64,000 bases of DNA from assembly GCA_037481815.1 (NCBI GenBank), contig JBBFKX010000002.1, positions 15,300 through 79,299 on the forward strand, given 5' to 3'. Position numbers and translations under genes: made by a program. Under the pieces are notes generated by a model. That model did no database searches. It was not told where the DNA came from and saw only the letters and a list, made by a program, of their open reading frames with translations. The DNA is from a candidate division WOR-3 bacterium. GTDB lineage: Bacteria; Hydrothermota; 32-111. Shown here piece after piece: positions 11,937 to 30,291 of the stretch. Position 1 is the first letter of the stretch, and each line of letters begins with the position of its first letter.

Positions 11937-13135
11937 AACAAATACTCCAGAATTTTTTCAAACTGTATTACGAACCTATTTTTGTCAAAAGGTCCATCTT
12001 TATATCCTTCAACTGCTTTACTACCTTTTAATGAAGTTAATCTTGCATTATAGGATAAATTTTCTTTTAGGTTTTTATCAAGGTATAACTGCTTGAGATA
12101 ATTGTAAGTCAAAATATAATCCTGAAAAGGAACAAGGAAGCCATTGAATCCATTTTTCACAATATAGCATGACCCCCAGCAGTATGAGTTAATTGTAGGG
12201 ATACCATAGGAGTGTGCTTCAACACTCACGATACCAAACGATTCGGCTATCGAAGGTAAAAGGAAAACATCAGTGTTTAAAAAGAGTTCCTCTTTCTTTT
12301 TTTCTGATACATGGGGATAGTAAATTATAAAATCTTCATTTAAACTTCTAAAATATTTTTTATCGATCTTCCCTACGATTGTGAATCTTATATTTTTAAA
12401 TTCAGAATATAACATTTTTGTTGCTTTCAAACTCGTTTCTATCCCTTTTTCATAATTCTGCCTTCCAATAGAGAGAATATTGAAAATACCATTTCCACCT
12501 TTTGAGGTTTTTTCAGGAATGTTAATGTAAGAGTTCAATTGAAAAACTTTTTTTCCAAATTTTTCCAAATAATCTCTCTCATAGGAGTTCAGACAGATCA
12601 AAATATCAGAAAGTTCATATAAACTTTTATAATAAGGATGAAAAAACTCATATGAAAACCTTTCGGTATGAGGTAATGTCGAATGGATTAAAGGTATAAA
12701 AACTGTTTTTCTACCATATTTTTTAGAATAAAAAAGTGCAGGGTAAACTATCGATGAAAAAGGAAGAAAACCTGTTATGATGATATCATACTTTTTTACA
12801 TTTTTTTTAAGATTTAATACTAAGGATGGGGATAAAATTTTAAAATTCAAAGTGTAATATTTTAAAAGGCCCATCTCTTCAAAATATTCCATTATCCTGT
12901 TCTTATATGGGAAATTTATAAGAAAAAACCTTTTTATCAAAGAACCATAAAAATTTTCCTCGGTTTCTAACATTTTATCATTTTTTTCATAAGAATCATC
13001 TGATACCTTTAAAGTATAAACATCAACATCAAAACCTTTTTCTTTAAGGAAATCAAAAATTTGTTTTGAATACACTTCTGAACCTGAAACAACAGGGAAA
13101 AACCTGTTAAAAACTAGTAAAAATTTTTTAGCCAT
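11933..13135 (-). CDS. glycosyltransferase, GT-B fold (family 4-like)
   Basis: 400 aa; ESFGIVSVEAHSYGIPTI motif typical of GT4. Confidence 0.7.
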   Translation of the reverse strand: MAKKFLLVFNRFFPVVSGSEVYSKQIFDFLKEKGFDVDVYTLKVSDDSYEKNDKMLETEENFYGSLIKRFFLINFPYKNRIMEYFEEMGLLKYYTLNFKILSPSLVLNLKKNVKKYDIIITGFLPFSSIVYPALFYSKKYGRKTVFIPLIHSTLPHTERFSYEFFHPYYKSLYELSDILICLNSYERDYLEKFGKKVFQLNSYINIPEKTSKGGNGIFNILSIGRQNYEKGIETSLKATKMLYSEFKNIRFTIVGKIDKKYFRSLNEDFIIYYPHVSEKKKEELFLNTDVFLLPSIAESFGIVSVEAHSYGIPTINSYCWGSCYIVKNGFNGFLVPFQDYILTYNYLKQLYLDKNLKENLSYNARLTSLKGSKAVEGYKDGPFDKNRFVIQFEKILEYLL

Positions 13136-14462
13136 TCTTTTTGCCTATGTATGTAATTTTTATTTTTTCCTTTGTTTCAATCTTTAAATGTAATTTCCCT
13201 TTTACGACTTTGAAATAAAAAGGAGATTTTTTTGATAAGATTTCTGTGTCATTGTGTTTTATTAAAATCTCTTTATCTTCAGGATAATAAACGATCAAAT
13301 ACTCACAATCCTCATCACTCTCCAAAAAAATCTCACCTTCTTTTGACACGAATCTTCCAACAGGAAAATTTTTATCAAGAAAAGAAAAGCCCTTTCCGAT
13401 GTAAAGATCATCTATTCCAAAAGTGATAGAATTTTTTAAATTTGGTATTTCGTTAAAACTTGAAACCACTTTTACCTTTTCGTAAAACACCTCTTCGATT
13501 GGGAAAGGATTAAAACTCTTATCGAGGAAATCTTCAACCCTTCTTGCATTTAGCAAAAATTTTCTTTTAAATCTGATAAAAAGAATTTTTGGAAACTCTA
13601 TCAACAATGAAAATAATATTTTCAAATGTAGAAGATTTTTTTTTAAAAATCTTGTTTTAAGAAAAAACATTTTTGTTAACAAAAGATTTTTAAAAGATAA
13701 AAATTTCAATAGAAAATAGTACTGATTTTTTAAAATTAAAAATTCTTTTCTCTTTGAAAAATTTTTAAAACTTCCAGAGTACTCATGATAACATACCGCA
13801 TCCCTGACAAACCCAATTTTGAAATCTGTTTCAGTTAAAATTCTCATCGAAAGATCAGCATCTTCATAAAAGGACGAATAAGAAAAATCAAAAAGTCCTG
13901 TTTTATTTAAAACTTCCTTTTTTATTCCAAAACAACCACCTGTTAAAAGGATGTTTGAATCTCTGGAAAATTCTACATCATCGTTTAAACCATAATCTCG
14001 ATTTTTAGCAAAACCTGCAAGATTCAATACCAGTCCTGTCGAGTTTATTATATCCCTTTTACCATTAAATTTTATAAGGGGAATCGCTGCTCCGATATCC
14101 TCATTTAAAAAGATCCTGTCAAAGTTTTCCAAAAAATCTTTATCCAAAATGATATCGTTGTTCATCACAAGAAGTATATCAGCACCAGAATAGAAGAAAT
14201 AATTTAATCCAAAATTGTGTGAAACATAACCAAAATTTTTGTTGACTCTTGTAACTTTAACTGCAGGAAACAATCTATGAACATCTTCAACTGAAGAATC
14301 GTTTGAACAGTTATCTATAAGATGAACTATATAATTTTTATAAGTTTGCTTAAAAATCGAATCGATGGATTCAAAGAAAACATCTTTCAATAATGAACTT
14401 CCATTAAAATTGACTATCTGAACTATGTAAAGATTTTTCTTCATAAAAATTCTTTGATGCAT
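13128..14462 (-). CDS. glycosyltransferase family 2-like protein with C-terminal extension
   Basis: N-terminal GT-A-like region (IVQIVNFNGSSLL, DNCSNDSS, DED-like motifs); 444 aa. Confidence 0.6.
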   Translation of the reverse strand: MHQRIFMKKNLYIVQIVNFNGSSLLKDVFFESIDSIFKQTYKNYIVHLIDNCSNDSSVEDVHRLFPAVKVTRVNKNFGYVSHNFGLNYFFYSGADILLVMNNDIILDKDFLENFDRIFLNEDIGAAIPLIKFNGKRDIINSTGLVLNLAGFAKNRDYGLNDDVEFSRDSNILLTGGCFGIKKEVLNKTGLFDFSYSSFYEDADLSMRILTETDFKIGFVRDAVCYHEYSGSFKNFSKRKEFLILKNQYYFLLKFLSFKNLLLTKMFFLKTRFLKKNLLHLKILFSLLIEFPKILFIRFKRKFLLNARRVEDFLDKSFNPFPIEEVFYEKVKVVSSFNEIPNLKNSITFGIDDLYIGKGFSFLDKNFPVGRFVSKEGEIFLESDEDCEYLIVYYPEDKEILIKHNDTEILSKKSPFYFKVVKGKLHLKIETKEKIKITYIGKKNG

Positions 14463-15286
14463 CTTTTTAAAGCATCATCAAATGGTGGCATTTCTTTAAT
14501 TCCAAGGTCATTTAATCTTATACTTTTCAAAGCACAATTTTTCGGAATCTTTTCAATCAGTTCATCACTTCTGATATTTATTTTTACATTTTTTTTCAGA
14601 TAATCTCTTATCATTTTAGCAACTTCAATATAAGAAACCTTGCCCAAGTTTACAAGATGTAAAATCCCGGAAACGGTTCTGTCTTTCTTCAGTAATTCTT
14701 CCATCTTTAAAGATAAATCCAAGGCGTATGTTGGAGAAGTGAGTATGTTATATAAAGAGACATCTTTTCCATCGATTATCTTTTTTATCGTAAATCCTAT
14801 TACATTATGACCTGGGGTAAAGTTCCCATATCCAAAAATTTCATCAGTTCTTATTATCAGAGCATCAGGATTGTTTTCCAAAATCAATATTTCACCTTTA
14901 AATTTAGAAAATCCGTAAACGGTTTTCGGTTCAGGAGAATCTGATTCAATATATTCTTCCCCTTTTTCACCATTAAAAACAAATCCAGTAGAAAGGTGAA
15001 CAAACTTTATACCAAGTTCTTTTGAAATCTTTGCAAGTTCGCTCGGTGCATATGCATTTATTTTCAGTGATTCTTCAGGATTTTTTTCACAATAATAAAT
15101 GTTTGTGATTCCTGCACAGTTAATACATATATCAATTTTATTTTCCTTAACAAACAGATAAAATTTTTCATAATTCACTATATTCAAATCCCCATGTGAA
15201 ACTGCAAAGACCTTAAATTCTCTTTTAAAATTTTCTGCAAGATATTTCCCAAGAAGACCTCCACTTCCCAAAATTAAAACATTCAT
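14441..15286 (-). CDS. NAD(P)-dependent sugar reductase/epimerase, RmlD-like (dTDP-4-dehydrorhamnose reductase family)
   Basis: GSGGLLG Rossmann motif, YGFSK catalytic Y-x3-K, 281 aa. Confidence 0.6.
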   Translation of the reverse strand: MNVLILGSGGLLGKYLAENFKREFKVFAVSHGDLNIVNYEKFYLFVKENKIDICINCAGITNIYYCEKNPEESLKINAYAPSELAKISKELGIKFVHLSTGFVFNGEKGEEYIESDSPEPKTVYGFSKFKGEILILENNPDALIIRTDEIFGYGNFTPGHNVIGFTIKKIIDGKDVSLYNILTSPTYALDLSLKMEELLKKDRTVSGILHLVNLGKVSYIEVAKMIRDYLKKNVKINIRSDELIEKIPKNCALKSIRLNDLGIKEMPPFDDALKRCIKEFL

Positions 15287-15341
15287 ATCCCCCTCCTGAC
15301 AGCGAAATAACCATCAAATTTTTTATAATAATTAGAAAAAT

Positions 15342-16469
15342 TCATAATTTCCATTTAACAGGTATTTTTACAAAACCCAAATGTGTTTTTTTTGCTCCAT
15401 CAACCTCAAATGAAGAAGCAAAATCTATATGATCGTAAGGAAATCTGTTATGAACATCATAGAATGCAATGGAAATATAATATTTACCTGGATTCAGGTT
15501 TACTGGATTGAAAGAAAAACTTATTTCACCATAATCTTTGAGATCAACATATCTCCCTTCATAATCATAGATGTTTGGACCAGATATCACATTTGAAAAT
15601 TGATCGGTTATTGAAAACCCAAAGATTCCCTTATCAACTTTTCCATTTTTTTTATACCTGACCTTAAAAGATATTTCCTTTCGTTCGAAAGAAGAATATC
15701 TATTGTTTTCGCATAATATTTCAACTATCTCTATCTCTCTGCTTCCTCTTCTTATTATATTTTTTGATGGATCATTCTCTTTTTTCGAAAGATAATTTGA
15801 AACAACATCTTCCGGATTTCCAATATCAACGATCTCACCATTTTCAAGAAGTGCTACCCTGTCCGAAAATCTTGAGATCAGTCCCATATCATGTGAAACA
15901 AAAAGTATTGTAACTCCTTCATTTTTTAGATTCTCAACTTTTTCAAGACATTTCCTCTGAAAATGGATATCTCCAACAGCAAGTACTTCATCTATAATGA
16001 GTATCTCTGGATTTGAAAATATGGCAACAGAAAATCCCAATCTGATATACATCCCCGTTGAATACTCTTTTACCTTCATATCAACATAATTTCCCAATTC
16101 TGAAAACTCTAGAATCTTATCGTATATCGAGTTTATATATTTTTTTGAAAATCCCATAATCGTTCCATAAAGAAAGATGTTCTCCTTACCAGATAACTCA
16201 GGGTTGAATCCAATTCCAAGACCAAGGAAGGGAGAAACTTTACCATAAACCCTTACTGTACCTTTATCAGGTTTTAATATTTTTGAAACTATCGATAATA
16301 GAGTTGTTTTCCCGGAACCATTGGCACCTATTAAAGAAAAAAACTCGTTTTTCGAAACATCAAAGGAAATATTTTTTAATGCCTCAATTTTTTTCTTTTT
16401 AAAAAAACCAACATTGGGATAGTATGTTAAAGCAACATCTTTTAAAGATATAACAATGTTACTTTTCAT
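15342..16469 (-). CDS. polysaccharide ABC exporter ATP-binding protein (Wzt/TagH-like) with C-terminal extra domain
   Basis: Walker A GANGSGKTT, signature LSGKEN-like region, Walker B IIDEVLAVGD; about 130-aa C-terminal extension as in Wzt. Confidence 0.8.
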   Translation of the reverse strand: MKSNIVISLKDVALTYYPNVGFFKKKKIEALKNISFDVSKNEFFSLIGANGSGKTTLLSIVSKILKPDKGTVRVYGKVSPFLGLGIGFNPELSGKENIFLYGTIMGFSKKYINSIYDKILEFSELGNYVDMKVKEYSTGMYIRLGFSVAIFSNPEILIIDEVLAVGDIHFQRKCLEKVENLKNEGVTILFVSHDMGLISRFSDRVALLENGEIVDIGNPEDVVSNYLSKKENDPSKNIIRRGSREIEIVEILCENNRYSSFERKEISFKVRYKKNGKVDKGIFGFSITDQFSNVISGPNIYDYEGRYVDLKDYGEISFSFNPVNLNPGKYYISIAFYDVHNRFPYDHIDFASSFEVDGAKKTHLGFVKIPVKWKL

Positions 16470-17218
16470 AAACTCTTAACCATCCTATCCTCATAAATGT
16501 TGAATATAAGATATCCAATAAGTACAAAAATTATTGCGAAGAAAATGGAATTTATAGTAACTGTTACATCTGGTAGATTTGAATAAAAAAGTATATTCTG
16601 GATCCCTATAACATAAACAGCAACAGGGTTTATAAGATACAGGTGAATAAAATTGTATGGCACGAGTTCAAATGGGTAAAATACTGGACATAGAAAAAAT
16701 AATGCCTGAACAAGTATCTCCCATCCTGCCTTAACATCTTTGAAAAAAACATAAATTATGGAAAGAATTGTTGATATACCAAAAAGAAAAAATGAAAATA
16801 TTATAATGTAAGGAATAAAAAACAGAGAAATAAAAGGAAAAGATTTGTTTATAACGATATAGAAAATTATGTAAATCACATATTCAAAAAAAACTATTAT
16901 AAGATTTGAAATAACAAGTGATAATGGTAAAATCAACCTTTCGATCTTAACCTTTAAAATCAATTCTCTGTTTCTGTGGAATAACTGTAAGGATTGTGTT
17001 GTTGTATTGACAAAAAATCTCCATAAAGTTGTTCCAGCAAGAATAAAAAGTGGATAATTTTTCATGTTGAATCTCATAAACCTGTTAAAAACGATATAGA
17101 TTATGATCATCAAAAAGAGAGGTTCAAAAATTATCCAGAAAAAGCCCAACAATGAATTTTTATATTTCGTTTTAAGATCTGATTTTATGAGTTCAACTAT
17201 TAGATCAAGATTTATCAT
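16466..17218 (-). CDS. ABC-2 type polysaccharide exporter permease (Wzm/TagG-like)
   Basis: 250 aa, about 6 TM helices, translationally coupled to the Wzt-like ATPase. Confidence 0.7.
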   Translation of the reverse strand: MINLDLIVELIKSDLKTKYKNSLLGFFWIIFEPLFLMIIIYIVFNRFMRFNMKNYPLFILAGTTLWRFFVNTTTQSLQLFHRNRELILKVKIERLILPLSLVISNLIIVFFEYVIYIIFYIVINKSFPFISLFFIPYIIIFSFFLFGISTILSIIYVFFKDVKAGWEILVQALFFLCPVFYPFELVPYNFIHLYLINPVAVYVIGIQNILFYSNLPDVTVTINSIFFAIIFVLIGYLIFNIYEDRMVKSL

Positions 17219-17270
17219 AAATGTATTTTAACAGAGATTGTTTATCAGTCAAGAATATAATCGGGTTGTA

Positions 17271-17299
17271 TTGACTATTTAACTATGTTATGTTATAAA
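17271..17299 (+). promoter_or_regulatory. sigma70-like promoter (TTGACT, 17-nt spacer, TATAAA) upstream of dapB
   Basis: TTGACT at 17271-17276 and TATAAA at 17294-17299 in the divergent intergenic region; the ATG of dapB is at 17306, so the leader would be very short. Confidence 0.3.
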
Positions 17300-17305
17300 T
17301 AAATT

Positions 17306-18091
17306 ATGATAAGAGTTGGAGTTAATGGTTGTGCTGGAAAGATGGGAAGCATCTTATGCTATAAGATCCTTCATGAGGATGATATTGTATTGACTGAAGC
17401 TTTTGAAAAAGCAGGTTCAGAATTTATTGGAAAGGACCTTGGAATAGTTCTTGGTATAGAAGAGTGGAAATTGAATATAAAAGAACTCTCAGTATCTGAA
17501 AAATACAAAATGGATATACTTGTAGATTTTTCAACGGAAGAGGGATTTTTAAATTCTCTTGAGTATTCTTTTACCCAAAAAATTCCTTTCATCTCCGGAA
17601 CAACCGGACTTTCAGAAGAAAGTTTAAAAAAAATGAAAAATTATTCTAAAGACATTCCAATCCTATACTCATCAAATATGTCAACTGGTATAAACTCGAT
17701 TTTAAACGCCCTGGAAGATATGAAAGATATTCTTAATGACAGGAAAAGAGATATTGAAATTATTGAGTACCATCATAACAAAAAAAAGGACTCACCAAGC
17801 GGAACAGCACTTATGATCGCAGAAAAAATATCAGAACTTACAAAAAGAGGCATCAACAAAACTGGAACAGTAAACTTTCCAAGAAACGATGAGATAAGGA
17901 TACATTCTTTAAGGCTTGGGGAAATATATGGTTATCATAAAGTGATAATCTCGGGAAACGGTGAAACAATCGAAATATCACATACAGCATTATCAAGAGA
18001 AACTTTTGCGAATGGAGTTATTCAAAGCATAAAGTTTTTATCGGACAAAAAGAATGGCTTATACTCGCTTTCAGACATCAAAAGGAGTTAA
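17306..18091 (+). CDS. dapB: 4-hydroxy-tetrahydrodipicolinate reductase
   Basis: 261 aa; N-terminal GxxGxxG-like NAD site (VGVNGCAGKMGS); position in a lysine operon. Confidence 0.8.
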   Translation: MIRVGVNGCAGKMGSILCYKILHEDDIVLTEAFEKAGSEFIGKDLGIVLGIEEWKLNIKELSVSEKYKMDILVDFSTEEGFLNSLEYSFTQKIPFISGTTGLSEESLKKMKNYSKDIPILYSSNMSTGINSILNALEDMKDILNDRKRDIEIIEYHHNKKKDSPSGTALMIAEKISELTKRGINKTGTVNFPRNDEIRIHSLRLGEIYGYHKVIISGNGETIEISHTALSRETFANGVIQSIKFLSDKKNGLYSLSDIKRS

Positions 18092-18092
18092 A

Positions 18093-19238
18093 ATGTTCTC
18101 TCAAAATCTTGAAAAACTTCCACCGTACCTTTTTGATCAAATAGATAAAATGAAAAAAAGTATAAAAAATCCTATAGATTTTGGTGTGGGAGATCCAGAT
18201 CTACCAACCCCAAAAATCATCGTTGATGAGATGATCAAAAATGTTAAAAAATCGGAATACCACAAATATCCCCCATATGAAGGCATTTCTGAATTAAAAA
18301 AAGAGATCTCGATATATTTTAAAAACAGATTCTCAGTGAAAGTTGATCCAGAAAAAGAGATACTAGTTTTAATAGGTTCAAAAGAAGGTATCGCACATTC
18401 ACTTGAAGCATTTATGAATAAAGGAGATAAAGTTTTTATACCTTCAATATGCTATCCGGTTTACAAAAATCAAACGATTTTAAAAGGTGGTATTCCCATA
18501 GAATACAGGATAAGTTATGAAAACAAATTCATACCTGATATAGAGGAAATAAAAAAGAAGATAGACAAAAAAACAAAAATTCTTTTTTTAAACTTTCCGA
18601 ACAATCCAACGGGAACAAAGGTCCAAAAAAGATTTTACGACGATATATACGAACTGTGCTCGAAAAAAAATATATTCGTGTTAAACGATAATGTTTATTC
18701 TGAAATATATTTTGATGATGATCCTCCCCCATCTTTTTTAGAATCAGATAAAAACAAGGATATATCCTGTGAGTTTCACTCTTTTTCGAAGATTTTCAAT
18801 ATGACGGGCTGGAGGATTGGCTTTATGGTTGGAAATCAAAAAATGATCGAGACGGTAAAAAAAATAAAAACGAACACAGATTCTGGAGTTTTTATTCCAA
18901 TCCAGTTAGCTGCCGTTAAAGGTTTAAAAAACTTTGAAAAGATTAAAAAAGATAACATAAAGGTTTACAAAAAAAGGATGGATATCCTTTCACAGGAACT
19001 TTACAGAAAAGGTTTTGAATTCCATAAACCGGTTGCAACTTATTACCTTTTCTCAAAAACCTTGAAAAATATGGATTCCCTATCTTTTACAAAATTACTT
19101 TTACAAAAAACTGGTATAGTTACAACTCCCGGCATAGGTTTCGGAAAAGATGGTGATAGGTTTATCAGATTTTCTATAACTTTAAACGAAAAAGATTTTT
19201 ATAGAGGAATAGAAAAAATAAAAAGATTAAAAATTTAA
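18093..19238 (+). CDS. dapL: LL-diaminopimelate aminotransferase (class I aminotransferase, DapL-like)
   Basis: LPPYLF motif near N-terminus, PLP-lysine region SFSKIFNMTGWRIG; start moved to the internal ATG at 18093 to avoid overlap with dapB. Confidence 0.7.
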   Translation: MFSQNLEKLPPYLFDQIDKMKKSIKNPIDFGVGDPDLPTPKIIVDEMIKNVKKSEYHKYPPYEGISELKKEISIYFKNRFSVKVDPEKEILVLIGSKEGIAHSLEAFMNKGDKVFIPSICYPVYKNQTILKGGIPIEYRISYENKFIPDIEEIKKKIDKKTKILFLNFPNNPTGTKVQKRFYDDIYELCSKKNIFVLNDNVYSEIYFDDDPPPSFLESDKNKDISCEFHSFSKIFNMTGWRIGFMVGNQKMIETVKKIKTNTDSGVFIPIQLAAVKGLKNFEKIKKDNIKVYKKRMDILSQELYRKGFEFHKPVATYYLFSKTLKNMDSLSFTKLLLQKTGIVTTPGIGFGKDGDRFIRFSITLNEKDFYRGIEKIKRLKI

Positions 19239-20414
19239 ATGGCTTTAATAGTAAAAAAATTTGGCGGGACATCTCTTGCAACGCCAGATCTTATAAAACA
19301 TCTTGCAAAAAAAGTTGCTCTGGATATTAAATCCGGAAACAAGGTTGTTGTTGTTGTTTCTGCAATGGGTAAAACAACAAACGAACTTATATCGATGGCT
19401 AAATCCTTAACCTCAAATCCCGATCAAAGAGAAATGGATATGCTATTAACAGCAGGCGAGAGGATATCGATGTCATTGTTTTCGATGGCTTTGAATTCCC
19501 TTGATATAAAAGCATACTCTTTCACAGGTTCTCAGGTTGGAATCATAACAACATCAACTCACACTGATGCTAAAATTATTACCGTAAAAGGTGAAAGGTT
19601 ACTTGAAGCGTTATCAAATGGAATAACACCAATAATTGCTGGATTTCAAGGGGTATCTTCTACAAAAGAGATCACAACTCTTGGAAGAGGCGGTTCGGAT
19701 ACAACCGCGGTTGCAATAGCGGCTTTTTTGAAAGCTGATCTGTGTGAGATCTATACTGATGTTGATGGAGTCTATAAAGTTGATCCAAGGATTATCCCTG
19801 AATCAAAAATAATTAAAAAAATATCCTATGATGAGATGCTTTTGATGTCACATTTGGGTTCGAAAGTTTTACATCCAAGATCCGTTGAGATCGCTAAAAA
19901 ATATAAAATACCGATTGTTGTAAAATCATCTTTTAATGAAGGAGAAGGAACAATGGTAACCAACATTGAAAACATTGAATCTCCAGGTATAAACAGTATA
20001 AGCGTAAAGGATGATCTCGCGCTTGTTAATATGAAAACTGGAGATTTGGGTCTTGTTAAATTTTTGAATGATCTAAACGAAAAAGATTTGAAAATCGAAC
20101 TGTTTATTACAAAAAGTTTGGAAAATATTTCACTTGTGATCTCCCAGGATAAAGTCAACGATCTTTTACCTCTTGTTGAAAACTTTTCAAACTCATTGAG
20201 TATCAGCAGTGATATCTCTTTAATATCACTTATCGGAGAAGGTATTTCAGAGGATAAAAACATTATCAAAACAATAATCGAAATAGTTTCAAAATATGAT
20301 AAGGATATATTTGGAATATTCACCAACAAAATTTCTTACACGATAGTTACTAAAAGGGCTTACAAAGAAAAAATTGTTAAAGAGGTAGGTAAAAGATTTG
20401 AACTTATCAAATAG
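19239..20414 (+). CDS. lysC: aspartate kinase
   Basis: N-terminal KFGGTSL and VVVVSAMGKTTNEL motifs; 391 aa. Confidence 0.85.
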   Translation: MALIVKKFGGTSLATPDLIKHLAKKVALDIKSGNKVVVVVSAMGKTTNELISMAKSLTSNPDQREMDMLLTAGERISMSLFSMALNSLDIKAYSFTGSQVGIITTSTHTDAKIITVKGERLLEALSNGITPIIAGFQGVSSTKEITTLGRGGSDTTAVAIAAFLKADLCEIYTDVDGVYKVDPRIIPESKIIKKISYDEMLLMSHLGSKVLHPRSVEIAKKYKIPIVVKSSFNEGEGTMVTNIENIESPGINSISVKDDLALVNMKTGDLGLVKFLNDLNEKDLKIELFITKSLENISLVISQDKVNDLLPLVENFSNSLSISSDISLISLIGEGISEDKNIIKTIIEIVSKYDKDIFGIFTNKISYTIVTKRAYKEKIVKEVGKRFELIK

Positions 20415-21375
20415 AAATGTGAATATCGCTCTTGTAGGAGCAACAGGTCTTGTTGGAAGAGAATTTTTAAAACTTGTTGAAGAAAGGGATTTCCCTTTTA
20501 AACAGTTGTATCTTTTTTCTTCAAAAAAAAGTGCTGGAACAAAATTTAAAGTAAAAGGTAAAATCCATACTGTTAAAGAGTTTGATAAAGATGATTTTCA
20601 AAATATAGATCTTGCATTCTTTGCTACTTCTGCGGAAGAATCCACAAAATATATAGAAGAGATTAAAAAATTTAAAACGGTTTGCATAGACAACTCTTCA
20701 GCTTTCAGATTGAAAAAAAATATTCCCCTTGTGGTCCCTGAGATAAATTTTCATATGATAAAAAGTAGAACAAAAATAATAGCTAATCCAAACTGTTCTA
20801 CGATACAACTCGTTTTGGTATTAAACAGTTTGTTAACAATTGAAAAAATACATTCCGTGAACGTTTCAACATACCAGGCGATATCAGGTGCAGGGAAAGA
20901 TGCTTTGACAAAATTCTTTGAACAAAAAGATGGTAGATATAAAAAGGGAGAACCAGTTTTTTTCAATAACCTAATACAACACATCGGGAATTTTAATCAA
21001 GATTGGTGCGAAGAGGAAAATAAAATAATCAACGAAACAAGGAAAATTTTAAACGAAAAGAGTTTAAATGTTTCTGCAACAACCATTAGAGTTCCTGTTA
21101 TAAATTCTCACACTGAGGTTGTTATGGTAGAGTTTAAAAGAAAAATTGATTTCAAAAAGGTAGTTGAAGTCCTTCAAAAAACCCCATATCTGATACTGTT
21201 AAAAGAAACCGACCCTATCTCTGTCTCTGGAACCAACCTTGTTTTTGTTTCCCGCCTAAGAAAAGATAAATTCTTAGATAACAGAATCCATTTTGTTATT
21301 ACTGCGGACAACCTAAGAATAGGTGCTGCCCTCAACGGTATAAAAATAGCCGAAAGGATAATATATGAAAGTTAA
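20398..21375 (+). CDS. asd: aspartate-semialdehyde dehydrogenase
   Basis: VGATGLVG NAD motif; active-site region NPNCSTIQL; the ORF-track start is a TTG overlapping lysC, and an in-frame GTG at 20416 is an alternative. Confidence 0.85.
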   Translation: MNLSNRNVNIALVGATGLVGREFLKLVEERDFPFKQLYLFSSKKSAGTKFKVKGKIHTVKEFDKDDFQNIDLAFFATSAEESTKYIEEIKKFKTVCIDNSSAFRLKKNIPLVVPEINFHMIKSRTKIIANPNCSTIQLVLVLNSLLTIEKIHSVNVSTYQAISGAGKDALTKFFEQKDGRYKKGEPVFFNNLIQHIGNFNQDWCEEENKIINETRKILNEKSLNVSATTIRVPVINSHTEVVMVEFKRKIDFKKVVEVLQKTPYLILLKETDPISVSGTNLVFVSRLRKDKFLDNRIHFVITADNLRIGAALNGIKIAERIIYES

Positions 21376-22525
21376 AATAATTTTTTTGATTTTGTTTCTT
21401 ACAAACATTTACCTTTTTTCTGCTTTCGATGACGCAATCATTGTTTCTGAAATAAATATAGATTCAACCAATTTCCCCTATTTAAATTTGAATATTGAGA
21501 TCCCATCTAAGGATATAATTTTTTTAAAGGATAGTTTAGGATATTTTTCAAAAATAAACATCATATTCACCTTTTTAAAAGGAAATGATAATCCCATACT
21601 TTCAAAAGAAATAGATACAACAATAAAATATGATACTTTCCCATCATCCATTGATACGCTGATAATAAAATTTAAAAACATTTCTTTAAATGTTCCAGAG
21701 GAAACAAAAAAATTGGTAATAAGTATTCTCGACAAAAAAACCGATAGATCAAAAAATTTTATTTTTAAAGTCGAGATACCAAAGATACCACAGACAGGCA
21801 ACTATCTTAAAAGTTTTTCAATAATAAATGGAACAAATGGTTCATTTTTCGCTGGAGAAACGATAAAAGTTGAAACTAAATTATTTAAAAGGAATGAGAA
21901 ACAGGGAAACTACAATCTTTTGATAATCGATCAAAACGAAAGGATAGTTTTCAAGAAAAAGTTCGCTTCTAAAAATTTAACTGATACCCTTTTGATAATC
22001 AAGGAACTTTATGGTGGGAAATACAGGTTGAAAATCGAATATATTGAAGATAATAAAATCACAAATTTTCTAACAAAAGACCTGTTTATAAAATTCTCAT
22101 TCATAAACTCGGAAAATGAATTCCAGGATATTTTAAACGCTTTATCTTATATCGCTAAATGGGATGAATTAGATAAACTGAAAAAATCCACAAAAGAAAA
22201 TAGAGAGGAAGAATGGAACAGGTTCTGGATAAAACAGATTTCAGAACCTATTATAACAACGAATATTTCTTATGCTGAATTTATGGAGAGGTACAACTAT
22301 TCGAATAAAAATTTTTCAGGATTCAAAAAAGGTTATAGAACAGATTTTGGAAGGATATATATAATTTATGGGAAACCTGATGAAATTGAAAGACATCCAT
22401 TTGATAAAGATAGTAAGCCATATGAGATCTGGTACTATTACAAAAACAACATACAGTTTATCTTTGTTGATGTAAATGGCTACGGAGAATATGTTCTACA
22501 GAATTATCTTGAACAGTTGAGGTGA
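21365..22525 (+). CDS. secreted GWxTD-like domain protein
   Basis: Signal peptide; C-terminal WNRFW...GYRTDFGRIYIIYGKPDE...YEIWYY segment resembles the GWxTD domain signature. Confidence 0.5.
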   Translation: MKVKIIFLILFLTNIYLFSAFDDAIIVSEINIDSTNFPYLNLNIEIPSKDIIFLKDSLGYFSKINIIFTFLKGNDNPILSKEIDTTIKYDTFPSSIDTLIIKFKNISLNVPEETKKLVISILDKKTDRSKNFIFKVEIPKIPQTGNYLKSFSIINGTNGSFFAGETIKVETKLFKRNEKQGNYNLLIIDQNERIVFKKKFASKNLTDTLLIIKELYGGKYRLKIEYIEDNKITNFLTKDLFIKFSFINSENEFQDILNALSYIAKWDELDKLKKSTKENREEEWNRFWIKQISEPIITTNISYAEFMERYNYSNKNFSGFKKGYRTDFGRIYIIYGKPDEIERHPFDKDSKPYEIWYYYKNNIQFIFVDVNGYGEYVLQNYLEQLR

Positions 22526-23841
22526 ATATGAGAATTTTTAAAATTTTGATTTTGACACTTTTTTCAATAAATGTTTTTGCAAACTATGATGTATCGATTA
22601 CATCTTTTAAAGCAAAAGATAACATACATCAAATATTTTATGATATCCAGTTCTACGCAAAGGATATCACGTATAAAAATGTCGATGGAAAAAATACCGG
22701 GATTCTACATTTTAAAATTTTTGTTAAAAACCTTGAAACATCACAGGAAATATATGATGAATGGAATTCAAAATCTTATATTTCACAATCTGAACAACTC
22801 AACAGAGAAATGTTCCTTCTCGATCGATCATCTTTTATCCTCTCTCCTGCAAAATATGAAATAAGAAGTTTGATAGTTGATTCTTTTTCAAAAAAGGAGT
22901 TTTCAAAAATCGATACGATAATTTTAGAAACTTTTGACAGTAAACCAACAATTTCAAATATACTTGTAGGATACACCGTAAAAAAAGATTCTCTTGAAGG
23001 TAAATTTACAAGAAACGGATATTCAGTTACTCCAAATCCATCAAAAATATTTACTCTTGTGAACCCTTTGATTTATCTGTATTTTGAAATTTATAATTTA
23101 CACAACAAAGAATATACTCTTGATTACCTTATATACAATGATAAAGATTCATTGATCACAACAATAAAAGGTGAAAAGAAAATATCGCCTCCTTTCGATT
23201 TTGTTGTGAATAACTTTTTCAACACTCTTGGTTTTAAAGATGGAAAGTATAGATTGGATGTCAAAATAAAATATGATGATAAAGAAATTCTTCAATCAAC
23301 AAATTTTGAAAAAATTTCAAACCTCTATACAGGCAGAGAAACCAAATATATTCTAACAGAAGAGGAAATGAAATATTATTCTTTAATAGATTATATTGCA
23401 ACTCCTTCCGAGTTAACACAGTTCAAATCCATAAAAGATGAAAAAGCAAAACATAATTTCCTTCTAAATTTCTGGGAAAGGAGAGATATCGATAAAACAA
23501 ACGATAAACTCGAATCTTTGAAAGATTTTATCTTAAAAGTTAAATATGTCAGAAAAAATTTTTCATCGGGTGGAGAAGATGGCTATCTTTCAGCGAGAGG
23601 AAGGATATATTTAAAATATGGTCCACCGGATGAAACATTACTTGTTCCGATGAGTAAAGGATCAAAAAATTATGATTCCTGGATTTATTATTCGAAAGGT
23701 GGCATGCAGTTCATCTTTATGGATATAAAAGGATTTGGTAAATATGAACTTATATATACAAATGTTATGGAAGAGGAGATACCACAAAATTGGACAAATT
23801 ACATTGACGATTACAATATAATCCAATTTTATAGAAATTAA
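22522..23841 (+). CDS. secreted GWxTD-like domain protein (paralog of upstream gene)
   Basis: Signal peptide; C-terminal FWERRD...GYLSARGRIYLKYGPPDE...YDSWIYY segment parallels the upstream gene. Confidence 0.5.
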   Translation: MNMRIFKILILTLFSINVFANYDVSITSFKAKDNIHQIFYDIQFYAKDITYKNVDGKNTGILHFKIFVKNLETSQEIYDEWNSKSYISQSEQLNREMFLLDRSSFILSPAKYEIRSLIVDSFSKKEFSKIDTIILETFDSKPTISNILVGYTVKKDSLEGKFTRNGYSVTPNPSKIFTLVNPLIYLYFEIYNLHNKEYTLDYLIYNDKDSLITTIKGEKKISPPFDFVVNNFFNTLGFKDGKYRLDVKIKYDDKEILQSTNFEKISNLYTGRETKYILTEEEMKYYSLIDYIATPSELTQFKSIKDEKAKHNFLLNFWERRDIDKTNDKLESLKDFILKVKYVRKNFSSGGEDGYLSARGRIYLKYGPPDETLLVPMSKGSKNYDSWIYYSKGGMQFIFMDIKGFGKYELIYTNVMEEEIPQNWTNYIDDYNIIQFYRN

Positions 23842-23842
23842 A

Positions 23843-25414
23843 ATGAAAAATTTTGATATTATTGTTGTAGGTTCAGGAATCGCTGGTTTAACTTTCGCAT
23901 TCAAGATTGCACCTTATGTTAACAATGTTTGTTTGATAACCAAGAAAAGTATTGAGGACTCAAACACAAACTATGCTCAGGGAGGAATCGCTGCTGTTTT
24001 TGGAGAAGATGATTCTTTTGAACTTCATATAAAGGATACTATCGAAACGGGAAGATATCTATCACATAAGGATGCTGTTGAGATAATGGTTATGAACGGT
24101 CCCAAACTCGTTCTGGAACTCAAAGAACTTGGAGCAAAATTTGAAATAGATGAAAATGGGAAATTTAAACTTGGTAAAGAAGGTGGGCATTCAAGAAGAA
24201 GGATTGTTCATGCCGGCGATTATACGGGATATGAAATTGAAAAAACACTTATAGAAAATATAAAAACCTACAACAATGTTTTGATGTTCACCAACCATTT
24301 TGTCTGTGATCTGATCGTTGATGAAAACAACCTATGCCAGGGTGTTTATGTTCTCGATGTTGAAAAAAATGAGATAGAGCCATATTTCTCTCAGTTCGTG
24401 GTGATCGCAACAGGCGGATGTGGTCAGGTTTACAAATTTACAACAAATCCCATGATCGCAACAGGTGATGGTATTGCGGTTTCATATCTTGCAAATGCCA
24501 AAATAGCAAACATGGAGTTCTTTCAATTTCATCCTACAGCTTTATACAACTCCGAAGAGATGGGGAGATCTTTTTTGATCTCCGAAGCTGTGAGAGGTGA
24601 AGGAGCATTTTTAAAATTGAAAGATAACAGGCAATTCATGCATAAATACAGCGAAAAAAAATCTCTTGCTCCAAGAGATATCGTTGCAAGAGCCATAGAT
24701 AATGAATTAAAACTTTCAGGAGAAGATTTTGTTTACCTTGACCTCTCTCCTTTCACAGAGAAAAAATTTAAAGAAAGATTTCCCAAAATATATGAAAAGT
24801 GTAAACAGATGAACATAAATGTTCCCTATGAACCGATACCTGTTGTTCCAGCAGCACATTATTCGTGTGGTGGTATTTATACTGATACAAATGCAAGGAG
24901 TTCTATTAAAAACCTCTATGCAATAGGTGAAGCCGCATGTACGGGAGTTCATGGAGCAAACAGATTGGCATCAAATTCATTGCTTGAAGCTCTTGTTTTC
25001 GCTGATCAGGCCTTTCGTGATGTGAGGGAAAAATTGAAAGAACCTTTTGAAACCACTGTTCCAGGATTTTACAGTCAGCCAAAACCTATAGATCAAGAAA
25101 CAAGGAAAATTTTGTTCGAATTGAGAAGAAAACTTAAAGAGATAATGTGGAAGAAGGTTTCAATCGTAAAAACTGTAAAATCTTTAAAAGAAGCTGATGA
25201 GCAACTAAACATTCTATCAGAAACATTTTTCAATCTTGAAAATTACAATACTGTTGAATATTTTGAGGTCAGAAATATGATAATAGTTTCAAAAATTATA
25301 ATAAACTCAGCACTCAAAAGAAAAGAATCGAGAGGATTACATTTTGTAAAAGATTATCCTGAAGAGAAAAAGGAATATTTACATGATACAATTATTCAAA
25401 AGGAGGTTTTATGA
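23843..25414 (+). CDS. nadB: L-aspartate oxidase
   Basis: FAD-binding N-terminus IIVVGSGIAGL, flavoprotein core (HYSCGGI, RLASNSLLEALVF); 523 aa. Confidence 0.85.
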   Translation: MKNFDIIVVGSGIAGLTFAFKIAPYVNNVCLITKKSIEDSNTNYAQGGIAAVFGEDDSFELHIKDTIETGRYLSHKDAVEIMVMNGPKLVLELKELGAKFEIDENGKFKLGKEGGHSRRRIVHAGDYTGYEIEKTLIENIKTYNNVLMFTNHFVCDLIVDENNLCQGVYVLDVEKNEIEPYFSQFVVIATGGCGQVYKFTTNPMIATGDGIAVSYLANAKIANMEFFQFHPTALYNSEEMGRSFLISEAVRGEGAFLKLKDNRQFMHKYSEKKSLAPRDIVARAIDNELKLSGEDFVYLDLSPFTEKKFKERFPKIYEKCKQMNINVPYEPIPVVPAAHYSCGGIYTDTNARSSIKNLYAIGEAACTGVHGANRLASNSLLEALVFADQAFRDVREKLKEPFETTVPGFYSQPKPIDQETRKILFELRRKLKEIMWKKVSIVKTVKSLKEADEQLNILSETFFNLENYNTVEYFEVRNMIIVSKIIINSALKRKESRGLHFVKDYPEEKKEYLHDTIIQKEVL

Positions 25415-25698
25415 ACATAAGAATTACAGGTAAACATCTTGAAATTTCACCAGAAATAAAAAATTTTATTGAAGAATCCTTAAAACACCTTGAAAAATTT
25501 GAACATAATATAATCGATTGTAATGTAGTGGTCGAATTGAATGGAAGAAGATATAAAGTCGAAATAGATGTTGATGTAAAAAAACATAGATTCGTTTCTT
25601 CAGATGAATCTTTCGATCTCATGACATCGATAGATAAAGCGATTGATAAAATGAAAACCCAGCTTAAAAAGTTTGAGGAGAAAAAACATGACAGATAA
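25411..25698 (+). CDS. hpf: ribosome hibernation-promoting factor (HPF/RaiA family, short form)
   Basis: 95 aa; MNIRITGKHLEISPEIK N-terminus is the classic HPF start. Confidence 0.8.
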   Translation: MNIRITGKHLEISPEIKNFIEESLKHLEKFEHNIIDCNVVVELNGRRYKVEIDVDVKKHRFVSSDESFDLMTSIDKAIDKMKTQLKKFEEKKHDR

Positions 25699-26686
25699 TG
25701 TAAAACAAAGAAGTGAGTTGAGCGTAGAAGACCTTTTTAAAGACAACAAAGAGGAATTAGTTTTGAAAGTGGTGTCAGGGAACAACGGGATGACAAACCT
25801 TATTAAAAGCAAAGAGGTTATAAATGCTGGACTCGCTTTTGCAGGATATACAGAACATATTCAAAAAAGCTCCATAATAGTTGCCGGTGATGTAGAACTT
25901 GATTTTTTTAACAACCTGAACAGTTCAAAGAGAAAGCTCTTTTTAAACTCAATCTTTGAAAAAGGATGTGCTGCTTTATTTATCGTAACTGAAAGAAATA
26001 TCCCTAAAATAATAAAAATACTTTCAAACAAAAAAGGTATCCCGGTTATTACAAGTAATAAAACTATATACAATACGATAAATAAACTCTCACTTTACCT
26101 TTCAAGCAAACTTGCTGAATCGATAACAAAACATGGAACACTTGTAGATATTTATGGTGTTGGAGTTTTACTTACAGGCAAAAGTGGAATCGGGAAAAGT
26201 GAGTGTGCTCTTGATCTTGTAGATAGAGGTCATCGTCTCGTTGCTGATGATGCTGTTAAAATTTATAAAAGAGGAGAGCATATTTTAATGGGAACAGGGA
26301 TTGCACCTGATTCGTCAATCCAATATCATATGGAAGTCAGAGGTGTCGGAATACTCGATATAGCCAAAATATTTGGGATAAGAGGTGTCAGATTGCACAA
26401 AAGAATCGAGATTGAGATAAACCTGATAGAATGGAAACCTGACACTGATATCGAAAGGGTCGGACTCAAAGAGGAAACATCCAACATTCTCGGAGTCGAA
26501 ATCCCTTTAGTTAAAATACCACTTTTACCAGGTAAAAATATTTCAGTTATAGCAGAAGTTGTAGCACTTAACCATCTTTTAAAAATTTCAGGTTATGACA
26601 CGAGCAAGGTCTTCAATGCTACACTGATAAAACTTATGCAGGAAAAAGCAAAAAAACTGGCAAGACTTGATGAGGACGAAGAATGA
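25673..26686 (+). CDS. hprK: HPr kinase/phosphorylase
   Basis: P-loop GKSGIGKSE followed by LVADD; 337 aa; the start may instead be the ATG at 25688. Confidence 0.85.
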   Translation: MRRKNMTDNVKQRSELSVEDLFKDNKEELVLKVVSGNNGMTNLIKSKEVINAGLAFAGYTEHIQKSSIIVAGDVELDFFNNLNSSKRKLFLNSIFEKGCAALFIVTERNIPKIIKILSNKKGIPVITSNKTIYNTINKLSLYLSSKLAESITKHGTLVDIYGVGVLLTGKSGIGKSECALDLVDRGHRLVADDAVKIYKRGEHILMGTGIAPDSSIQYHMEVRGVGILDIAKIFGIRGVRLHKRIEIEINLIEWKPDTDIERVGLKEETSNILGVEIPLVKIPLLPGKNISVIAEVVALNHLLKISGYDTSKVFNATLIKLMQEKAKKLARLDEDEE

Positions 26687-27063
26687 TATACGGAATTTTT
26701 ACAGGTCATAACAATTTTGCATACGAAACAGTTAAAAGCTGCGAAAGTATAATCGGTGATCAGCAAAACTATTCAACAATTTCAAACAGAGAACTTTCAA
26801 ACGATGAGATCTATGAGCAGTTTGAAAAAATTTTAAAAACTCATCCTGATTGTAAAGAGTTTTTCATATTTATAGATTTCTATGGCTCTTCAATCTCACT
26901 TCCTGCAATAAAGATTAAACAGAAAACAGAAAAGGAAACAATTAAACTCATATTCGGGTATAATCTTCCGATGGTTATCGATTTTTTTCTTCACAGGAAT
27001 AAATTGACTGGAGAACAACTTTTCGAAAAAATCATCGATGTTGGAAAAAGAGGTATAAGATGA
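26683..27063 (+). CDS. PTS EIIA component, mannose-family-like (orphan, regulatory)
   Basis: 126 aa; N-terminal IFTGHNNFA with the conserved His position of EIIA-Man; no EIIC/EIID in the window. Confidence 0.6.
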   Translation: MIYGIFTGHNNFAYETVKSCESIIGDQQNYSTISNRELSNDEIYEQFEKILKTHPDCKEFFIFIDFYGSSISLPAIKIKQKTEKETIKLIFGYNLPMVIDFFLHRNKLTGEQLFEKIIDVGKRGIR

Positions 27064-27530
27064 AAATATTAAGGATAGATGACAGGTTGATCCATGGACA
27101 GATAATCGCTGGATGGCTACCAAATCTTGGTATTTCAAACATTTTGCTTTTCAACGAATCTTTACCTTTAGATATGTTACAGATCTATAAAAATATGATA
27201 CCGGAAGATGTAAATCTCCAGATTATTGATATAAATCATATTGATATGATCCCTGATAAAAACTCTTCCATATACCTTTTTGAAAATATAAAAACCTTAA
27301 AAAATAATTTGAACAAACTTGAAAATATCAGTTTTGACATTTTTAATCTTGGTGGAATGAGGAACAAAGATAACAAACAAAAAATCTTGGATTTTATTTA
27401 TATGGATGAAACAGATATAGAAGATTTCTTCGCTATAGTAAAAAGTTTGAAATTAAAAAAAATCAACGCTCAACAGTTGCCAACAACACAATCTTATGAT
27501 ATAAAGAGAATTCTCGAAAGAAGGAGTTGA
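27060..27530 (+). CDS. PTS EIIB component, mannose/sorbose-family-like (orphan, regulatory)
   Basis: N-terminal [10 protein letters not shown] motif containing the phosphorylatable His of EIIB-Man/Sor. Confidence 0.65.
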
Positions 27531-27531
27531 G

Positions 27532-29202
27532 ATGAAAAAGAAAAATAGGACAAGAAGTTTACTGACAACTATAATCATCACAGTTATTCCCTTTTATGTT
27601 GCTTTCCTATTCATCATTCTTTTCTTTATCGAATACAGAAACATTTCACATCATAACAAAGATACTGAGGATTATTTTAGAAGTATAATGGATAACTATT
27701 CATTTTCATCAGCAAATTACATCCAGAGAGATGATACAAATGGTATATTAATCATATTAAACAATTTTTTAAAAATGCCTGACTTTAAATTTGCTCTGGT
27801 TCTTGATTCAAACCTTCAAATATTCAACTATCTGAAGAGCGATAATAAAAATGAAATGATCATCTCAAAAGAAATCGCTAAAAATTCTATACAAGATCTG
27901 AAGATTTTAAAAGAGTTTAACAAAAATCTTCTAATCGATGTCTATTATTCACCTATATATTATGAAATGAACGGAGAAAGAAAACCTTTAGGTGTTCTCT
28001 GTGTCGGTTTATCAAGAGGTGAAAATGTAAATGCGATAATAAGTATACTCCTTCAGACATTTGCGATAATAGCGGTTTCGCTTATTCTATTTTTCCTGAT
28101 TTTACTCCTTCTTTACAGAAGAATAAAAAATCCTATAGCGATGATAACACAGGAGATGAAACAGATAAATGAGGGAAAGGGTAATATAGAAAACCGTAAA
28201 ATAACCGTAGAAGCAGAGAGAGAAATAAATGAGTTGATCGAGGAGTTCAACAAGGTTCTTGATTTTCTTTATAATATAAAAAATAATGTTTCGATCATAA
28301 CAAACCAATTAAATGAACACATTGAACTTTTATCATCTTCATCTGAGGAACTAACCGCCTCATCGGAAGAAATCACTTCAACGATCCAGGAAATTTCTCA
28401 GAATTCCTCTGAACAGGCAAAAAAAATCGAAGAGGTTTTCCAGAAAACAGAATCAACAAAATCAAGTATAAACACATCTTTTGATAAAACAAAGATGAAC
28501 GAGGAATTCTCTTCAAAGATTAACGAAGTCACAATCACAGGAAAAGAACTATCAAAAAAAGCTGTTGAAAAGATTGAAACAATCATAAACAGTTCGAATG
28601 AACTTTATGAAAAAATAAAAGATATAAATGAAAAACAGGAAAAAATATCTATAATAACCGACACTATAGAATCGATAACCAACAGAACAAACATTTTATC
28701 ACTCAACGCATCGATTGAAGCTGCAAGAGCTGGAGAGTATGGAAAAGGATTTCAGGTTGTAGCAGAAGAGATAAGAAAACTTGCTGAAAAATCCCAAGAA
28801 TCTGCGTTGGCTATACATGGAATAATAAATGAAATCAAAAGTTCAATAGAAATACTCATAAATCAAAGTAGATCAAACGAATTTGTCCTTAACGAAGGGA
28901 AAGATGTAATCATGAATACATCCGAGGTTCTTGAAAATATAAGCAACAGCATATCTTCAATAACCGAAAACAATAAGAGCATCTCAAATGAAATTAAAAA
29001 TGTAAAAGCGATTATAGATGAGTTCAGTTTAACGATAAACGAGGTGGTAAAAATCTCCGAGACAAACGCTTCAGCAAGTGAGGAGATCGCTGCAAGTATA
29101 GAACAACAGGGAGCTTCAATAGAAGAGTTGGCTTCAAGTGCCCAACAACTTTATGAAATAATCGGAAAACTTAAAGATATAGTTAATAAGTTTCAGGGAT
29201 GA
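27532..29202 (+). CDS. methyl-accepting chemotaxis protein
   Basis: Two TM segments flanking a ~150-aa periplasmic region, HAMP, highly conserved signalling segment [33 protein letters not shown]. Confidence 0.85.
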
Positions 29203-29203
29203 A

Positions 29204-29791
29204 TCACAACCTTTGAAGGATCATCTTTGAAACAGCTTTGAGTGTTTCAAACACACCGATTCCCTGAGTTGCAACCGCTTCAAAATATGGTACATTCCAG
29301 GGATTCAACGCCTGTTGTAGATCCTCTATCGATGAAATATTCGGTAGATCCCTTTTGTTGTACTGCATTACAAATGGGATGTCTTCTATTTTAAGGTTAT
29401 GCTCAGCAAGATTTTCAAGAAGATTGTCAACACTTTCTATGTTATCTTCAAACCTTTCAATCTGTGAATCAGCAACAAATACTATTCCATCAACTCCTTT
29501 AAGGATCAATTTTCTTGATGCGTTATAATAGATTTGCCCTGGCACGGTGTAAAGTTGAAATTTTGTTTTAAAACCTTTTACTGAGCCAATATCCATAGGT
29601 AAAAAATCAAAAAACAAAGTCCTGTCCATCTCTGTTGCAAGAGAGATCATCTTTCCTCTTGTCTCTGGACTTATCTTGTTGTATATCACTTTCAAATTTG
29701 TTGTTTTCCCTCCTAAACCTGTTCCATAGTAAACTATCTTAAATGTTATCTCTCTTGATGAGTAATTAATAACTGACAACTTTTCCTCCAA
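29204..29791 (-). CDS. mglA: Ras-like small GTPase MglA
   Basis: 195 aa; near-identical signature blocks to MglA ([56 protein letters not shown]). Confidence 0.85.
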
Positions 29792-29793
29792 TT

Positions 29794-30291
29794 TTACTTG
29801 AACAGATCATCAAGTTCACTTTCTGCTGCCTTTTTGAAATCTTCGTTAAAAGTATCTTTCATTCTTTCTGTGTTACTGCTCAATTTAGCAAATATATTGT
29901 TGAAAATCCTTTCGAGTTCAGTAACAGTTGTTTTGATTCTTATTCTGATAAGTCCAAGGTTTGTGGTTTTACCAAAAATAACAACGAGGATTATTCTTGA
30001 TAGAATTATTGTTATATAAATATTTTCCTGTTTACCCTGATGAAAAAGTTCTGTAAACTCATCTTCACCTATAAGTAATGCAAGTTGACTCGTTGCTGCA
30101 AAATCTGCTGCTGCAAGTGAGCCAAACGAAACAAGGTCAAGGTTTGAAATATTTCCAACAGAAGTAATAAGTTGTCCTGCCTTGTCGACAAGAAGTAGTG
30201 CAGTTGCGTTTGTCGATGTTAAAAGTTTGTTTAATGAGTTATTTATATCCCAGAAATCTTGTTCAAATATGCTCAGATTTTCATAACTCAA
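29794..30291 (-). CDS. mglB: Roadblock/LC7-domain protein, MglB-like GAP partner of MglA
   Basis: 165 aa; immediately upstream of and co-oriented with mglA; roadblock-like composition and size. Confidence 0.65.

Follow-up and report, generated by a model that had tools for sequence, protein, structure and literature searches.

A tandem pair of putatively exported GWxTD-domain proteins encoded between asd and nadB in a candidate division WOR-3 bacterium

Two consecutive genes for apparently exported proteins lie between the genes for aspartate-semialdehyde dehydrogenase (asd) and L-aspartate oxidase (nadB) in a candidate division WOR-3 bacterium, and the question is what such a pair does among genes of aspartate-derived metabolism. 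The genes, termed GWxTD-A and GWxTD-B (in short A and B), were analysed within a stretch of 64,000 nt (contig JBBFKX010000002.1, assembly GCA_037481815.1, positions 15,300–79,299), hereafter the window, in whose positions all coordinates are given. An earlier note, made from the sequence alone, had regarded them as a tandem duplication that was inserted into a biosynthetic operon and had diverged into two specificities. The best reading of our data, to which we give about an even chance, is that A and B form an exported, envelope-associated binding pair; the extracytoplasmic location is well supported, and the mechanism is one that we infer. The genes and their immediate flanks are as follows.

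20398–21375, +, asd (aspartate-semialdehyde dehydrogenase), upstream flank; NCBIfam NF011456 at 335 bits versus a cutoff of 223, and Pfam
21354–21358, +, Shine-Dalgarno-like AAGGA, 6 nt 5' of the A start and within the end of asd; read from the sequence
21365–22525, +, GWxTD-A gene (A-type orthologue); open reading frame (ORF) with ATG start, 386 amino acids plus stop
22519–22522, +, Shine-Dalgarno GAGG (inside GAGGTGA), 5 nt 5' of the ATG at 22528; read from the sequence
22528–23841, +, GWxTD-B gene (B-type orthologue); 437 amino acids plus stop from the ATG at 22528
23843–25414, +, nadB (L-aspartate oxidase), downstream flank; NCBIfam TIGR00551 at 546 bits versus a cutoff of 453

Both proteins had been proposed to be GWxTD-like, and both match the hidden Markov model TIGR04514 (GWxTD_dom, cutoff 28 bits) over profile positions 3–105 of 105: A with 91.0 bits (E 6e-26, residues 257–359) and B with 72.2 bits (E 4e-20, residues 286–390 in the numbering of a 439-residue product). 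The Pfam model PF20094 (gathering threshold 26.9 bits) recognizes A with 56.6 bits and leaves the window's B without a match; precomputed PF20094 matches exist for B orthologues that are 41–69% identical. No Pfam or NCBIfam match except GWxTD was obtained for either protein of the window. Homologues of A that are 92–93% identical come from WOR-3 metagenome-assembled genomes (MAGs) and are annotated 'GWxTD domain-containing protein'. Judged by sequence, the pair is part of an already known family whose function is not described, and near-identical public MAG proteins already bear its name. The name-giving motif reads G-Y-R-T-D in A, with tyrosine in place of tryptophan throughout A's clade, and G-Y-L-S-A in B, in which both T and D are replaced; sister clades carry GYxSD, and most of the family carries GWxTD. 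The similarity between the C-terminal regions that the earlier note had described was recovered by BLASTP, with 35% identity across 172 residues (E 2e-18). The A family was represented by an alignment of 51 sequences (A1) and the B family by one of 28 (A2), and hhalign aligned the A and B profiles over 395 columns, up to residue 414 of B, with a probability of 100% and an E-value of 8e-65. The whole architecture is therefore shared, beyond the C-terminus. It is made up of the following parts, for which AF2 denotes the AlphaFold2 model.

21365–21427, +, signal peptide of A, about residues 1–21, MKVKIIFLILFLTNIYLFSAF, no lipobox Cys; hydrophobic N-terminus with a modelled helix at 2–15
21437–21769, +, beta-sandwich domain 1 of A, residues 25–135; AF2 model
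21803–22093, +, beta-sandwich domain 2 of A, residues 147–243; AF2 model
22112–22522, +, GWxTD domain of A, residues 250–386; TIGR04514, domain-only model and conserved columns
23377–23769, +, GWxTD domain of B, degenerate motif; TIGR04514, hhalign and motif comparison
23770–23838, +, B-specific conserved C-terminal tail (ExIPxNW...); conserved columns of B-type proteins

The N-termini of both proteins resemble signal peptides without a lipobox, in agreement with the export signals claimed in the earlier note, and the same holds for 49 of the 51 A-type and 24 of the 28 B-type sequences. No transmembrane segments were found past the signal peptide in A or B, and the layout is the one typical of the family, in which proteins of ∼380–470 residues carry the export signal at the N-terminus and the domain at the C-terminus. 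Structure prediction, which the earlier note had suggested, was carried out for A with alignment A1 (predicted local distance difference test score, pLDDT, 89.5; predicted template modelling score, pTM, 0.78) and gave two beta-sandwiches, the first strand of which begins at residue 25, followed by an alpha+beta domain. A domain-only model from alignment A3 (pLDDT 91.1, pTM 0.85) has five or six helices and then a four-stranded sheet. The motifs of the GWxTD domain of A are FW, GYRTDFG, IERHPF, KPYEIWYYY and FxFVD; B has GYLSARG where GWxTDxG is expected and DETLLVP where DEIERHP is expected.

A Foldseek search with the GWxTD domain model gave no match with E≤0.001 among solved structures, and PDB sequence and profile searches with A, B, A1 and A3 gave nothing meaningful; the best value (E 0.0078) belonged to an unrelated HIN-type protein, and the best value for the domain was E 0.42. 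Neither an enzyme fold nor that of a substrate-binding protein was found in structure comparisons. As modelled, the GWxTD domain would be an alpha+beta fold without a convincing counterpart among the solved structures of the PDB. Multi-Ig-like (immunoglobulin-like) or MG-domain (macroglobulin) exported proteins, such as FN3-like sandwiches, alpha-2-macroglobulin/complement MG domains and the carbohydrate-binding domain of Wzt, show 5–15% sequence identity, a match that is generic to the fold and comes with no functional motif in common. The small alpha/beta units of the BLIP-like, DUF4309 and BamE-like types score near noise and cover one third of the GWxTD domain; they have no equivalent of its preceding helical bundle.

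The tandem duplication with divergence of the earlier note suggests a local event within one lineage, and the age of the pair bears on this. An exhaustive profile search returned 11,809 clusters at 50% identity, 7,990 of them at E≤1e-10, and a scan of one genome per species with two peptide patterns detected GWxTD homologues in at least 563 species. MAGs of WOR-3, Stahlbacteria, KSB1, Zixibacteria, Ignavibacteria, Bacteroidota and Marinimicrobia contain homologues of A and B, which bear the name 'GWxTD domain-containing protein' if they have been given one. Matches were also seen in bins of Melioribacteraceae, Ignavibacteriales and Chlorobiaceae. Gene neighbourhoods were taken from 80 species-level loci, of which 39 have tandem GWxTD domains on one strand at the spacing of consecutive genes and 37 a single GWxTD domain with space for a second gene; the remaining four are truncated. 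The pairs occur in WOR-3/TA06, Hydrothermae, Zixibacteria, Edwardsbacteria and some bins labelled Ignavibacteria. Without exception the first gene of a pair matches the A profile better than the B profile and the second gene does the reverse, and outside the window's clade 21 of 22 first genes are nearer to the window-clade A, and 22 of 22 second genes nearer to the window-clade B. By these comparisons A and B constitute two distinct orthologue groups that are found, with A invariably first, across several phyla of the Fibrobacteres-Chlorobi-Bacteroidetes (FCB) group; this split and the fixed gene order were found in no description of the GWxTD family. Because the split and the order hold across phyla, the duplication would be older than those lineages and not local. 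The two proteins are clear paralogues with one shared architecture and differ at many conserved positions, as a local duplication with two specificities would also have it; with the constant order of separate orthologue groups across phyla, and with the site asymmetry described below, we consider that explanation decidedly improbable. The sequences and models together point to an old, co-inherited, Sec-exported, non-lipoprotein pair of paralogues, each with a signal peptide, two Ig-like beta-sandwiches and a C-terminal GWxTD domain.

Selection was assessed from the ratio of nonsynonymous to synonymous substitution rates (dN/dS) against three close relatives, which was 0.05–0.09 for A and 0.03–0.04 for B, compared with 0.07–0.14 for asd and 0.01–0.03 for nadB. 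These low values indicate that A and B are real genes under tight purifying selection, and a decaying B copy was rejected since the dN/dS of B lies under that of asd. Column statistics were then taken from 69 A-type and 41 B-type sequences. The A-type proteins conserve D327 (100%), I-E-R-H-P-F (H344, 96%) and K-P-Y-E-I-W, and D327, E342, R343, H344, K351 and E354 are invariant or nearly so; R309 and N314 also count among the conserved residues. The B-type proteins retain Gly, Pro, Trp and Phe at structural positions, are less conserved at the Glu, Arg, Lys and Pro positions of the A-site, and show no consensus where the A-type has His; they carry an extra tail (E416, 100%; W422, 93%) that is missing from the A-type. 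The loss of most polar conserved positions in B with no new conserved set in their place, so that the added tail is its distinguishing feature, speaks against two parallel specificities.

In the window's clade both members depart further from the family, with which they share the C-terminal domain in exported proteins of ∼380–450 residues and the typical architecture: the motif is degenerate, the B of the window itself gives no match to the Pfam model, and A has lost the 'RDPxPxTxxNE' loop. Window-clade A retains TD, IERHPF and KPYEIW (22100–22522), whereas window-clade B partly retains 'RRD...E' and has SA, LLV and KN at the TD, IERHPF and KPYEIW sites (23374–23838). It reads GY(L/R/I)SARG, with Ala replacing the Asp of the motif, and sister clades retain SD. 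Such complementary loss of motifs would suit a heteromer, and the asymmetric conservation appears no less compatible with two partners than with two specificities side by side. The same residues allow for an alternative in which GWxTD-A is an extracytoplasmic enzyme, for instance a hydrolase of peptidoglycan or another envelope polymer that uses Asp, Glu, Arg and His, and B is its catalytically dead regulator. It would account for the (near-)invariance of the six polar residues of A and their loss in B, and genes related to peptidoglycan (LD-carboxypeptidase, M15, M23, MurJ) occur nearby; we nevertheless regard it as unlikely.

The GWxTD domain is also found in a different class of proteins. 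Long proteins that contain two GWxTD stretches proved to be membrane proteins of the Peptidase_M56 (BlaR1) type with a HELAH motif. In these M56-GWxTD proteins the membrane domain is followed by a single GWxTD domain or by two, with TonB_C or a beta-sandwich behind (P0081, P0115, P0121, P0149, P0167, P0187 and P0233). A gene for a Penicillinase_R (BlaI-type) repressor lies directly upstream of one M56-GWxTD gene (locus L090, 1860–4009). In BlaR1-type transducers the region that follows the M56 domain is the extracytoplasmic sensor. Since GWxTD, in some M56 proteins, takes the position that the penicillin-binding sensor domain has in BlaR1, it would serve these proteins, often as two copies, as a module for recognition outside the cytoplasm. 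By analogy the M56 architecture supports an extracytoplasmic location of the window's proteins, binding or sensing over catalysis, and function in pairs. A signalling architecture of BlaI-type repressor and M56-GWxTD protein was found described nowhere. The window's A and B differ from BlaR1/MecR1-type systems in that they have no M56 domain and no adjoining BlaI-type gene, their neighbours being asd and nadB, so that just the GWxTD domain is held in common and not the system. The idea that the long proteins are natural A-B fusions was rejected, as they are membrane proteins of the M56 type whose two GWxTD copies resemble each other.

The gene neighbourhoods of the pair vary between lineages. 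In the window it is part of an array of twelve co-directional genes (17306–29202, +) in which no gap exceeds 2 nt, in the order dapB, a gene similar to LL-diaminopimelate aminotransferase, lysC (aspartate kinase), asd, GWxTD-A, GWxTD-B and nadB, followed by hpf, hprK, the EIIA(Man) and EIIB(Man) components of a phosphotransferase system (PTS), and a methyl-accepting chemotaxis protein (MCP). The order asd-A-B-nadB, with the entire array from dapB to EIIB, persists in relatives down to ∼35–40% identity and is limited to the window's clade (8 of 80 loci). Another 21 pair loci have the order ATP-binding cassette (ABC) ATPase, two MacB_PCD/FtsX permeases, A, B, ABC ATPase, ABC-2 permease and GAF/PP2C. 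Four WOR-3/Hydrothermae loci (L016, L019, L029 and L041; for example L029, 4535–9662) have M48 peptidase, A, B, MurJ and ScpB, and in these the start of MurJ overlaps the end of B by ∼45 nt. The lone A-type genes occur in KSB1, Bacteroidota, Marinimicrobia and others; upstream of them are rimO-like genes (26 loci) and ftsY (16 loci), and near them, mainly downstream, are genes for LD-carboxypeptidase (14), a POTRA/Omp85 protein (11), M15 D-Ala-D-Ala dipeptidase (7) and CdsA (7). A B-like homologue precedes genes of the LpxL, GT9 and M23 (peptidase) types. The recurrence of envelope genes, for peptidoglycan precursor supply and flipping, trimming, outer-membrane insertion and lipopolysaccharide, suggests a role of the pair in the envelope.

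The 21 loci with MacB_PCD/FtsX permeases raise the possibility that the pair serves a type VII (MacB/FtsX/LolCE-like) ABC mechanotransducer as periplasmic partner and is here unlinked from its transporter. EnvC is the periplasmic working partner of FtsEX, and in 21 of the 39 pair loci the ABC ATPase and the two permeases lie directly upstream of the pair on the same strand. Essentially a single clade (Zixibacteria with bins of similar placement) accounts for these 21 loci, however, and neither the window nor the MurJ-type loci have such a transporter next to the pair; none was found among the scanned ORFs of at least 150 residues in the window. We consider this explanation quite unlikely.

The array itself would suggest a tie to the flanking aspartate-family metabolism, in which the pair captures or senses diaminopimelate, lysine or aspartate-derived compounds, or couples the supply of peptidoglycan precursors to the wall. 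The zero intergenic spacing from dapB through the aminotransferase-like gene, lysC, asd, A and B to nadB, and the conservation of this arrangement to ∼35–40% identity, would be in line with such a tie. But the context is confined to the eight loci of one clade, the pair occurs in unrelated contexts in other lineages, neither a substrate-binding-protein nor an enzyme fold was found, and the array also holds the unrelated hpf, hprK, PTS EIIA/EIIB and MCP genes; we hold the metabolic tie to be very improbable. The earlier note had placed the pair inside a biosynthetic operon, and the tightly packed co-directional array with asd and nadB agrees with this, although "inserted between" them describes the window's clade only. 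Likewise, the position is kept in the relatives of that clade, whereas in other lineages the pair lies behind a MacB/FtsX-type ABC transporter or in front of MurJ. The asd–nadB placement is an operon arrangement peculiar to this clade, and it has no evident metabolic significance. Since no enzyme or substrate-binding-protein fold was found, the proteins bear an export signal and other phyla show other contexts, neither A nor B is an enzyme of lysine/diaminopimelate or NAD synthesis, and the pair in this window is not to be read as lysine or NAD biosynthesis.

In the reading that we prefer, an exported envelope-associated binding pair, A and B would have a joint extracytoplasmic function, probably as a heteromer. 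A would provide the conserved polar and aromatic site of the family (TD, IERHPF and KPYEIW), and B would be a constrained, site-degenerate partner with a conserved C-terminal tail of its own. The GWxTD domain would serve as a non-catalytic, ligand- or partner-binding module at the cell envelope, in peptidoglycan or outer-membrane biogenesis, and in the clade of the window the pair would merely be co-transcribed within a housekeeping array. Several observations weigh against this proposal. The link to the envelope comes solely from gene neighbourhood; cytoplasmic housekeeping neighbours are just as frequent (the rimO and ftsY genes counted above, and nadB, hpf and hprK here), and each class of context belongs mostly to one clade and thus reflects few independent events. 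The 37 loci with a lone A-type gene and no adjoining B indicate that the partner is not universally needed or is encoded elsewhere. The conserved His, Glu, Arg and Asp of A could just as well be catalytic, and literature searches found no publication on the GWxTD family (TIGR04514, PF20094, IPR030959) in the library that was covered. A more far-reaching version, which we put forward tentatively and consider rather unlikely, is that A and B form a core envelope complex of the FCB group with a new fold that binds a peptidoglycan or outer-membrane intermediate or machine, and that this fold has been reused as a BlaR1-type sensor; it is prompted by the links to MurJ, type VII ABC transporters, Omp85 and diaminopimelate genes. 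GWxTD is a large family under strong constraint, which resides in housekeeping operons of many poorly studied phyla and whose domain has no solved structural relative. The apparently old A/B pair, its asymmetric site, the reuse as an extracytoplasmic sensor and the envelope neighbours make it a testable candidate envelope factor.

At the locus itself, A overlaps the last 11 nt of asd, as the earlier note had observed, and nadB begins 1 nt past the stop of B. The mechanical ORF of B (22522–23841) starts with GTG at 22522 and encodes 439 amino acids. The GAGG at 22519–22522 would overlap this GTG and has a spacing that fits the ATG at 22528, and a 97%-identical homologue of B has 437 amino acids, the length that the gene caller of a relative also gives; for these reasons the start of B is more likely the ATG at 22528. 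It follows that A and B are 2 nt apart and share no 4-nt overlap. Of the gene sizes given in the earlier note, the 386 residues of A hold and the 439 of B more likely become 437, and the stop/start overlap at 22522–22525 is probably an artefact of choosing the GTG. The two genes are the only GWxTD genes in the window. A scan of 16800–29600 for promoters and terminators stayed at chance level and is uninformative on internal transcription units. The GC content of the pair (0.26–0.29) is slightly lower than that of the flanks (0.30–0.37); horizontal acquisition of the pair was rejected because this difference is small and synteny is kept to ∼35–40% identity.

Within the array, LL-diaminopimelate aminotransferase is the best family assignment of the second gene, yet its score is under the equivalog cutoff. 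HprK and soluble EIIA/EIIB, with no EIIC or EIID nearby, look like a purely regulatory PTS remnant. A WOR-3-type array from dapB to EIIB, with an A that is 56% identical, is also carried by DYMB01000004.1 (locus L011), which is titled 'Acetofilamentum sp.' and assigned to the Bacteroidaceae by NCBI; this taxonomic label looks doubtful. Directly past the array, on the minus strand (29204–30291), lie genes for a Ras-like small GTPase and a Roadblock/LC7 protein, an MglA/MglB-like polarity pair that is kept at the same position in all relatives examined.

Elsewhere in the window, four large ORFs (860, 758, 568 and 1310 amino acids) have no Pfam match at E≤1e-5.

635–3217, 3918–6194, 34913–36619 and 50918–54850, -, large ORFs without Pfam match; Pfam scan

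A tyrosine recombinase (Phage_integrase with a SAM-like N domain, XerC/D-like; 54859–55752, minus strand) is encoded beside a beta-CASP RNase. A TamB-like protein of 1142 amino acids (59053–62481, minus strand) and an OmpA-family protein (9379–10395, plus strand) are consistent with a diderm envelope. Two regions are devoted to surface polysaccharides. The one at 37229–50915 encodes NeuB, a carbamoyltransferase, a Polysacc_synt_2/PglD-like protein, a DegT aminotransferase, two UDP-glucose/GDP-mannose dehydrogenases, a Wzz/GNVR P-loop protein and a cytidylyltransferase, and the one at 10794–17218 encodes glycosyltransferases, an epimerase and a Wzm/Wzt-type ABC exporter.

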